This document shows, piece after piece, positions 21,537-21,813 of a stretch of 47,726 nucleotides of DNA. The DNA is from Sphingobacteriaceae bacterium. GTDB taxonomy: Bacteria; Bacteroidota; Bacteroidia; Sphingobacteriales; Sphingobacteriaceae. The translations under genes and the position numbers were made by a program. Location: NCBI GenBank assembly GCA_014380615.1, contig JACMJM010000046.1, positions 1-47,726 of the forward strand. Reading direction: 5' to 3'. The notes beneath the pieces were generated by a model. It saw only the letters and a program-made list of their open reading frames with translations, was not told the DNA's origin and searched no databases. Position 1 is the first letter of the stretch; every line of letters begins with the position of its first letter.

Positions 21537-21556
21537 TTGTTCAATTAAAGGTTAAT

Positions 21557-21603
21557 TTATCTCAAACGAAATTACATTATGTATCTAATTTCGTTTGAGA
21601 TAA
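21557..21603. promoter_or_regulatory. 18-bp perfect inverted repeat (11-nt spacer) immediately upstream of pilin-like gene 1
   Basis: ttatctcaaacgaaatta (21557-21574) pairs with taatttcgtttgagataa (21586-21603). With one mismatch it extends to 20 bp. It lies 21-67 nt upstream of the ATG at 21536. Confidence 0.5.
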
Positions 21604-21813
21604 TTACAAAAGACAAGCCACAATGGAAATAAGCTAAAAGAGATACAAAAAGAGGGTTTTTTAAAAAGATAGCCAAACCCGGATGGGTATAATGATTCCC
21701 ATTTGGGTTAAATTTTACACATAATAATTTCCCGGCGCAGAAAATCAGCTTTATTATTGGCAGATGTATTAAGCTAAAACATTAGCCCGTTCGGTTTAAT
21801 TTAATTTTTCTTA

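Follow-up and report, generated by a model that had tools for sequence, protein, structure and literature searches.

In Escherichia coli, a 5' stem-loop has been connected with the longevity of the papA message (Bricker and Belasco, 1999) and another is described as stabilizing the ompA message (Emory, Bouvet and Belasco, 1992), both as cited in PMC3997798. In Flavobacterium psychrophilum, canonical -24/-12 promoters with mapped starts drive genes for adhesins and exported proteins (PMC9723704). The fibrils TLP-1a and TLP-1b, resolved by cryogenic electron microscopy from pond water (CryoSeek), are assembled by donor-strand exchange; their producer and assembly machinery are not known, and it is a Flavobacteriales bacterium that provides the closest predicted fold (PMC11494351). 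As to perfect inverted repeats, template switching is a documented source of them (PMC5941160; PMC7202029). Here we consider a perfect 18-bp palindrome just upstream of a pilin-like gene in a metagenome-assembled genome (MAG) of the Sphingobacteriaceae (GCA_014380615.1), on a stretch of 47,726 nucleotides that makes up one whole contig (JACMJM010000046.1), referred to below as the window. The reading that we favor, with a probability of roughly 0.4, is that the palindrome acts as a 5' leader stem-loop of the pilin mRNA, protecting its 5' end and, together with a hairpin past the stop codon, bracketing the message.

The palindrome and the predicted promoter beside it

The arms of the palindrome, at 21557-21574 and 21586-21603, match perfectly over 18 nt across a spacer of 11 nt, exactly as the initial annotation had described them (sequences in Table 1). 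When one mismatch is tolerated, the arms grow to 21 nt (21557-21577 and 21583-21603), as past a single G-G mismatch two more pairs form within the spacer, leaving a 5-nt loop, ACATA. The distance of 21-67 nt from the start codon, also given in the initial annotation, correctly places the palindrome upstream of the gene, but it fits a TTG at 21536, whereas from the annotated ATG at 21533 the 3' arm lies 23 nt away. This is the longest perfect inverted repeat of the window and ranks first among all the inverted repeats detected in it, while the longest in 12 shuffles measured 9-13 nt, and the analytic chance expectation for a perfect inverted repeat of at least 18 nt in the window is 4e-5. The half-site is found at just its own two places, even when 3 mismatches are tolerated, and at least two matches were obtained in 0 of 100 shuffles. 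The arms are poor in G+C (22%, or 4 G/C per 18 nt in each). The minus-strand RNA of 21553-21607 is predicted to fold at -23.1 kcal/mol (z = -8.7), and the same segment as single-stranded DNA at -17.7 kcal/mol.

The palindrome is real and far from chance. The source being a MAG, and chimeric reads being capable of yielding perfect palindromes, a chimeric fold-back generated by the assembler had to be considered. However, the entire intergenic region, loop orientation included, is 100% identical in a Logan assembly made independently from run SRR11670876, with the palindrome in the middle of a 22-kb contig, and the element, at 47 nt, is below read length and distant from both contig ends. An assembler artefact is thus very unlikely.

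The initial annotation had overlooked a conserved sigma-54-type promoter, whose -24/-12 box ends 3 nt before the palindrome starts, at 21603. A TGG-N8-TTG motif of canonical spacing is found, at a distance of 34-75 nt from the ATG, in all 12 subunit promoters that we compared, these being the promoters of subunit genes preceded by a long intergenic region, with one box counted per promoter (Table 1). At its background frequency, 3.8e-4 per nt, the motif would be expected 0.017 times per 45-nt zone. By the strict form of the motif (for the consensus, see PMC12316311), two occurrences are found in the window, both strands searched; the one at 23226 (minus) lies inside the coding sequence of a 165-aa protein and was taken as chance. 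A similar box is also present ahead of the first operon gene in five loci. Given this conservation, the 163-aa subunit gene probably has its own sigma-54-dependent promoter at 21620-21606 and its own transcription start, and the palindrome would then straddle the predicted start instead of merely lying between co-transcribed genes.

From the box and the standard geometry of such promoters we infer both the sigma-54 dependence and the start, the latter falling inside the 5' arm. With A21594 as the predicted start the hairpin begins at +1, the dyad spans approximately -9 to +38, and the RNA would carry a 5'-terminal hairpin of 9 + 2 bp at -8.5 kcal/mol (z = -1.5). A scan for the sigma-70 consensus was uninformative, with 9 sites versus 9.1 expected from shuffles, and no exact TAnnTTTG box, the -7 element of Bacteroidetes, was recognized by eye in the intergenic region. 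Further upstream, in the zone from -160 to -40 of the 12 promoters, TTCCCC/GGGGAA half-sites, which are found upstream at each of the 12, are 8.6-fold enriched (binomial p = 5e-22) and are often paired as TTCCCCA-N4-TGGGAA; one such palindrome in the window is a candidate enhancer site for an activator. A gene for an NtrC-type sigma-54 activator is encoded within the window (44861-46192; Sigma54_activat, E = 1e-71), unlinked to the cluster.

The same gene order is found in Pedobacter gandavensis (L001), Pedobacter sp. P351 (L070), Daejeonella (L068), and Mucilaginibacter (L071), as well as in contigs from MAGs or metagenomes (L002, L069, L072-75, L077), even the nearest homologs being distant (49-51% identity for the subunit, 55% for the usher). 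A comparable hairpin or inverted repeat is present at 0 of the 11 other homologous subunit promoters, in 9 related loci, and the palindrome is hence no general trait of such operons. Those 11 leaders fold at 0 to -10 kcal/mol, compared to -23.3 kcal/mol for the window when counted from the -12 box. In 130 kb of homologous loci, no match to the half-site comes closer than 4 mismatches. In a collection of 185,579 species genomes that does not include the source MAG, the exact 18-mer produced 29 single, non-palindromic chance matches in unrelated taxa; in the metagenomes of the JGI, the gapped core of the palindrome was matched by 33 contigs, all of them carrying unrelated hairpins, most of which have GC-rich inner stems and agree with the palindrome solely at the bases specified by the query; and a blastn search of a plasmid collection with the palindrome returned no match. 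With no comparable hairpin in any other leader, and no half-site relative in the homologous loci, the palindrome is lineage-specific, and most likely it does not belong to the conserved make-up of the pilus system.

Origin and possible function

Comparison of the leaders suggests that the element is an insertion. The leader in the window measures 72 nt, and those of the relatives either 34-40 nt (a short class) or 49-75 nt, and in a MAFFT alignment a gap of 35 nt falls exactly on the repeat. When positions 21585-21553, a putative 33-nt insertion, are removed, a leader of 39 nt remains, TCTCAAACGAAATTAACC, which can be aligned up to the ATG with the leaders of relatives (L070, L077) and which recovers a CTCTCAA...TTAAC block common to the leaders of L068, L069, L070, and L077. 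A deletion scan also favors removal of the 3' arm. The 5' arm is probably the ancestral one, as it carries the TCTCAA...ATTA part of the leader block that is conserved in the related loci. Since the deletion restores a leader resembling those of the relatives, a local inverted duplication is suggested, and the palindrome most likely arose as a 33-nt inverted duplication, by template switch, of the first bases of the leader, an origin with weak to moderate support.

The longer leaders of the relatives display a shared block, TAAGTTAAC-nCTCTCAA-N3-5-TTAAC(T)T (L068 4150-4175; L069 4765-4790; L070 2815-2840 and 3655-3682; L077 975-1000), which can fold as a 5-7-bp hairpin with CTCTCAA in the loop. 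No compensatory changes are seen in this block, and thus an RNA role cannot be separated from a DNA role.

According to the scenario that we favor, template-switch duplication would have turned a 39-nt leader into a 72-nt leader with a perfect hairpin. A sigma-54 transcript from approximately 21594 would carry a stem-loop of 9-11 bp at its very 5' end, while RNA reading through from the upstream subunit genes would form the full 18-21-bp stem (-23 kcal/mol), and the 5' stem-loop, along with the hairpin after the stop codon, would bracket a monocistronic pilin mRNA. The most likely effect would be the shielding of the 5' end from 5'-end-dependent decay, and with it a higher subunit output in relation to usher and minor subunits, as with the papA and ompA stem-loops in E. 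coli. Both the insertion history and the effect on mRNA stability are what we infer from leader comparison, folding, and this analogy. The second hairpin, for its part, folds at -17.2 kcal/mol (z = -2.8) and has counterparts between the subunit and usher genes in L002 (7979-8015), L001 (10558-10592), and L068 (5345-5385 and 5910-5954); it is likely a stoichiometry-setting terminator or attenuator ahead of the usher gene. The initial annotation had offered the setting of subunit stoichiometry as one role for the palindrome, but the hairpin in the position usually linked to this role is the present one, 3' of the gene, with its counterparts in Pedobacter and Daejeonella. As to the two means proposed there, an RNA hairpin, including a processing site in read-through RNA, can be accommodated, but partial termination is at odds with a structure that is not terminator-like.

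A number of observations weigh against this scenario. A start at approximately 21594 leaves half of the 5' arm untranscribed, with an RNA hairpin of only -8.5 kcal/mol, and a function at the RNA level would thus leave the perfect symmetry over 18 bp unexplained; the untranscribed outer arm favors instead a purely historical explanation or a role at the level of DNA. The start itself is a prediction from sigma-54 geometry. The element is absent from every relative, the stem-loop being maintained in 0 of the 11 other orthologous leaders, and so neither conservation nor covariation argues for selection. Deleting the 33 nt improves the alignment scores only slightly (24 versus 22, and 26 versus 22), the -12 element in the window reads TTGT instead of TTGC, and rpoN is not among the genes of the 47.7-kb window.

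It is conceivable, if somewhat doubtful, that the palindrome is a neutral or near-neutral recent mutation, an inverted duplication tolerated between the -12 box and the translation start and serving no selected function. The perfect, undecayed arms suggest a recent event, and the element is found in this organism only, among 12 homologous promoters; it looks like an insertion when compared to the other leaders, is flanked by the 5-nt direct repeat AATTA, and spares the -24/-12 box as well as the 23 nt next to the ATG. Perfect inverted repeats are documented to arise by template switching (PMC5941160; PMC7202029). No argument speaks directly against such neutrality; a hairpin of -23 kcal/mol across the start is unlikely to be without an effect on expression, though an influence of this kind need not amount to a function. 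A DNA operator, on which a dimeric repressor or modulator bound to the dyad would block open-complex formation or promoter escape, appears unlikely. The perfect dyad symmetry does overlap the predicted start, and with the outer half of the 5' arm untranscribed, symmetry at the level of DNA calls for an explanation other than RNA. However, the operator proposed in the initial annotation found no backing: no second copy of the half-site is present in the 47.7-kb window at 3 mismatches or fewer, none in the homologous loci, and no palindromic copy in the two public collections, of species genomes and of metagenomes, and it is missing from all the homologous promoters. No DNA-binding domain is found among the cluster proteins, and no regulator gene in the cluster, the genes for extracytoplasmic function (ECF) sigma factors and for LytTR and NtrC-type regulators being located elsewhere in the window, unlinked to the cluster. 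The size, arms of 18 bp with centers 29 bp apart, is also far larger than that of usual half-sites.

Processing between genes has a known precedent in pilus operons, that of the papBA type, and the full stem of 18-21 bp could likewise act in read-through RNA, as a site for processing of the RNase III type or as a pause or insulator uncoupling the upstream genes from the pilin message. No convincing terminator is seen between the stop codon of the 108-aa gene (21814) and the repeat, and the full stem, at -23 kcal/mol, extends for about two helical turns. On the other hand, the AT-rich stem without a U-tract is not an intrinsic terminator, the conserved promoter of the gene makes processing unnecessary for a pilin message, and the relatives do without the element, all of which leaves a read-through role improbable. 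A newborn cis-regulatory element, in which the template-switch duplication put a cruciform-prone or operator-like dyad over the region of melting and initiation (-9 to +38), is a more remote prospect again. Were it true, one lineage would possess its own switch, at the level of DNA or RNA, over a TLP-1-type chaperone-usher pilus of the Bacteroidota, and regulatory innovation by inverted duplication would have been caught in the act.

Other identities were considered for the palindrome and rejected. It is not an intrinsic (Rho-independent) terminator, as each arm has only 4 G/C per 18 nt, no U-tract follows on either strand (tails AAAUUAACCUUUAAUU, minus, and UUACAAAAGACAAGCC, plus), and it was not picked up by the terminator scan. 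In an inverton, the inverted repeats enclose some 100 bp or more of DNA carrying a promoter, and a recombinase is encoded close by. This identity is ruled out: the arms here are 11 nt apart, no recombinase is encoded in the cluster, and the orientation of the loop is identical in two assemblies. No Rfam family was matched at the gathering threshold in the whole window, and at E <=10 the segment 21400-21900 produced only sub-threshold matches to generic miRNA hairpins.

The gene cluster and other features of the window

The cluster genes on the minus strand encode, in this order, proteins of 165, 167, and 108 aa, then, past an intergenic region of 277 nt that contains the palindrome, the 163-aa subunit, and, past a spacer of 306 nt, a protein of 916 aa (Table 1). 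The initial annotation was right to call the gene downstream of the palindrome pilin-like. The AlphaFold2 (AF2) model of the 163-aa protein (predicted local distance difference test, pLDDT, 89.6) is best matched by TLP-1a (E = 1e-6, TMq 0.63), followed in the PDB by FimA, CfaB, PapA, Caf1, the CS17 pilins, and the subunit of a Sulfolobus thread, and a profile of the subunit family detects 9ikj and 9ikk (TLP-1a/b) in the PDB at E = 1.4e-5; the modeled protein thus resembles the pilins of donor-strand exchange, with a fold akin to that of TLP-1. In the model of the 916-aa protein (pLDDT 77.8), a large beta-barrel is combined with two immunoglobulin (Ig)-like domains at the N terminus and two Ig/prealbumin-like domains at the C terminus, and the top 11 Foldseek matches in the PDB are all FimD or PapC (E = 1e-13 to 2.5e-10), with low TM-scores (0.26-0.37). 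A divergently transcribed gene encodes a 273-aa candidate chaperone with a match to fn3_5 and a weak match to WxLIP_PGBD. No Pfam pilin, usher, or PapD domain is found in the cluster proteins, and neither Pfam nor NCBIfam assigned the subunits or the usher to a family. By its models, the cluster at 17985-24311 looks like a divergent chaperone-usher-type pilus system. The 108-aa protein, which has no family match, is a genuine product of the cluster by comparison of loci, as both position and size are conserved (105 aa in L068, 3549-3866; 109 aa in L070, 2245-2574).

Table 1. Features of the pilus-like cluster of the window, and -24/-12 boxes of the subunit promoters compared.
Feature	Position	Strand	Remarks
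Palindrome, 5' arm TTATCTCAAACGAAATTA	21586-21603	minus (coding)	from sequence inspection and leader comparison
Palindrome, spacer GATACATAATG	21575-21585	minus	11 nt
Palindrome, 3' arm TAATTTCGTTTGAGATAA	21557-21574	minus	from sequence inspection
Putative 33-nt insertion (spacer, inverted copy, and ATTA)	21553-21585	minus	flanked by direct repeat AATTA
Sigma-54-type -24/-12 box TGGCTT-GTCTT-TTGT	21606-21620	minus	canonical 10 nt from GG to -12 position; reads GT, not GC
Predicted transcription start	21592-21596	minus	12 +/- 2 nt past -12 position by standard sigma-54 geometry; inside 5' arm
Upstream palindrome CCCAAATGGGAA	21696-21707	minus	belongs to conserved TTCCCCA-N4-TGGGAA type, found some 80-110 nt before -24 box; candidate enhancer site for an activator
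3' hairpin CCUUUCUUUUUAAGGA...UCCUUAAAAGAAAGG	20979-21033	minus	15-16 bp; A-rich then U-rich arms, then UUAUU; just past subunit stop
Secreted small protein, 165 aa	22801-23298	minus	open reading frame (ORF), upstream of palindrome
Secreted small protein, 167 aa	22294-22797	minus	paralog of 163-aa subunit, 35% identical
Secreted protein, 108 aa	21814-22140	minus	conserved in L068 and L070
Secreted pilus subunit, 163 aa	21042-21533	minus	directly 3' of palindrome; annotated start ATG 21533
Outer-membrane usher-like protein, 916 aa	17985-20735	minus	from structure model and Foldseek
Secreted Ig-like protein, 273 aa	23490-24311	plus	divergent; candidate periplasmic chaperone; position kept in all related clusters
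Promoter box, window			TGGCTT GTCTT TTGT; 72 nt to ATG
Promoter box, L001			TGGCAT GCCAT TTGT; 38 nt to ATG
Promoter box, L002			TGGCAT GTGGT TTGT; 39 nt to ATG
Promoter box, L068			TGGCAT ACCCT TTGC; 62 nt to ATG
Promoter box, L069			TGGTAC ATCTA TTGA; 60 nt to ATG
Promoter box, L070, first			TGGTAC AGCAA TTGA; 60 nt to ATG
Promoter box, L070, second			TGGTAC AGCCA TTGA; 61 nt to ATG
Promoter box, L070, third			TGGTAT AGCAA TTGA; 49 nt to ATG
Promoter box, L071			TGGCTT TGTTA TTGT; 40 nt to ATG
Promoter box, L072			TGGCTT TGTTA TTGT; 63 nt to ATG
Promoter box, L075			TGGCTT TGTTT TTGC; 34 nt to ATG
Promoter box, L077			TGGTAC TACAT TTGT; 75 nt to ATG

Other palindromes are present in the window. 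Two related ones, at 28542-28583 and 38221-38256, with arms AACGTCAGAC(A/T)G, are each located just 3' of the stop of a minus-strand gene (a giant 2886-aa ORF, 28630-37290, and a 644-aa SPFH protein, respectively), with 'atcgcttttaaa' on one flank (the 5' side on the plus strand), and from their sequences the two appear to be either copies of a small palindromic repeat or a terminator type, common to both genes, that has no U-tract. A perfect 15-nt palindrome, AACTTGCCAAAAGTT / AACTTTTGGCAAGTT, at 2809-2842, with a 4-nt spacer, is a candidate operator in the divergent region between the gene for a thioredoxin-like 763-aa protein (minus) and the gene for an MFS transporter (plus). A regulatory block on the minus strand (40893-47024) encodes a LytTR response regulator, the NtrC-type activator mentioned above, a PAS/HAMP histidine kinase, and a Kup potassium transporter, and its activator and kinase genes are separated by a region with two palindromes, both perfect (44771-44798 and 44828-44855). 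A scan of the window for tRNA and tmRNA genes found none.

Overall, the palindrome alone is of little weight, being a leader hairpin of a single lineage whose likeliest role, to protect the 5' end of an abundant pilin message, is well known from textbooks, and it is useful mostly as a possible snapshot of how a hairpin is born when the first transcribed bases undergo inverted duplication. The greater value is in the context, a seemingly sigma-54-controlled, chaperone-usher-like cluster with TLP-1-like subunits in the Sphingobacteriaceae. As TLP-1a/b are the closest relatives of these subunits among solved structures, in both sequence and fold, the cluster offers a testable genetic home and regulatory logic for this fibril family.

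Comparison with known systems

With the intrinsic terminators and attenuators that separate the major-subunit gene from downstream genes in chaperone-usher operons the palindrome shares a strong hairpin inside a pilus gene cluster. It differs from them in being positioned upstream of the subunit gene, past its promoter, in being AT-rich, and in lacking a U-tract, the terminator-like hairpin of the cluster being the one that follows the subunit gene. Like the repetitive extragenic palindromic (REP) sequences and miniature inverted-repeat transposable elements (MITEs), it is a small AT-rich perfect palindrome located between genes, but unlike them it is single-copy in all available sequence, with one occurrence in the 47.7-kb contig and no related copy in the species-genome or metagenome collections; it is a different palindrome, with AACGTCAGACWG arms, that occurs twice in the window. 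In terms of origin it resembles the perfect inverted repeats that template switching at quasipalindromes creates or corrects (PMC5941160; PMC7202029): the arms are perfect, the spacer is short, the position is intergenic, the element resembles an insertion when compared to homologs, and short direct repeats mark the junctions. The difference is that the mechanism is deduced here from distant homologs alone, with no ancestral imperfect state for this lineage.

The context of the palindrome is reminiscent of sigma-54 promoters with enhancer sites farther upstream, such as those mapped in F. psychrophilum (PMC9723704): the GG-N10-G(C/T) geometry is present, dyads of the activator type are preserved some 100 nt upstream, and the window has a gene for an NtrC-type activator. 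In most of these cluster promoters, however, the -12 position is T or A, and the described promoter type has no palindrome right after the -12 element, while one is present here.

The systems closest to the reading that we favor are the papA and ompA leaders, as represented in PMC3997798. The differences are that the 5' end here is predicted, that the stem is partly untranscribed from the predicted start, that the hairpin is not kept in homologous clusters, and that the promoter is of the sigma-54 type, versus a sigma-70 promoter followed by RNase E processing. What is shared is a stem-loop, predicted here to lie right at or close to the 5' end, in an mRNA that encodes an abundant structural subunit of the surface, a second hairpin after the gene, and the expected outcome, a major subunit produced in excess of the machinery that would assemble it.

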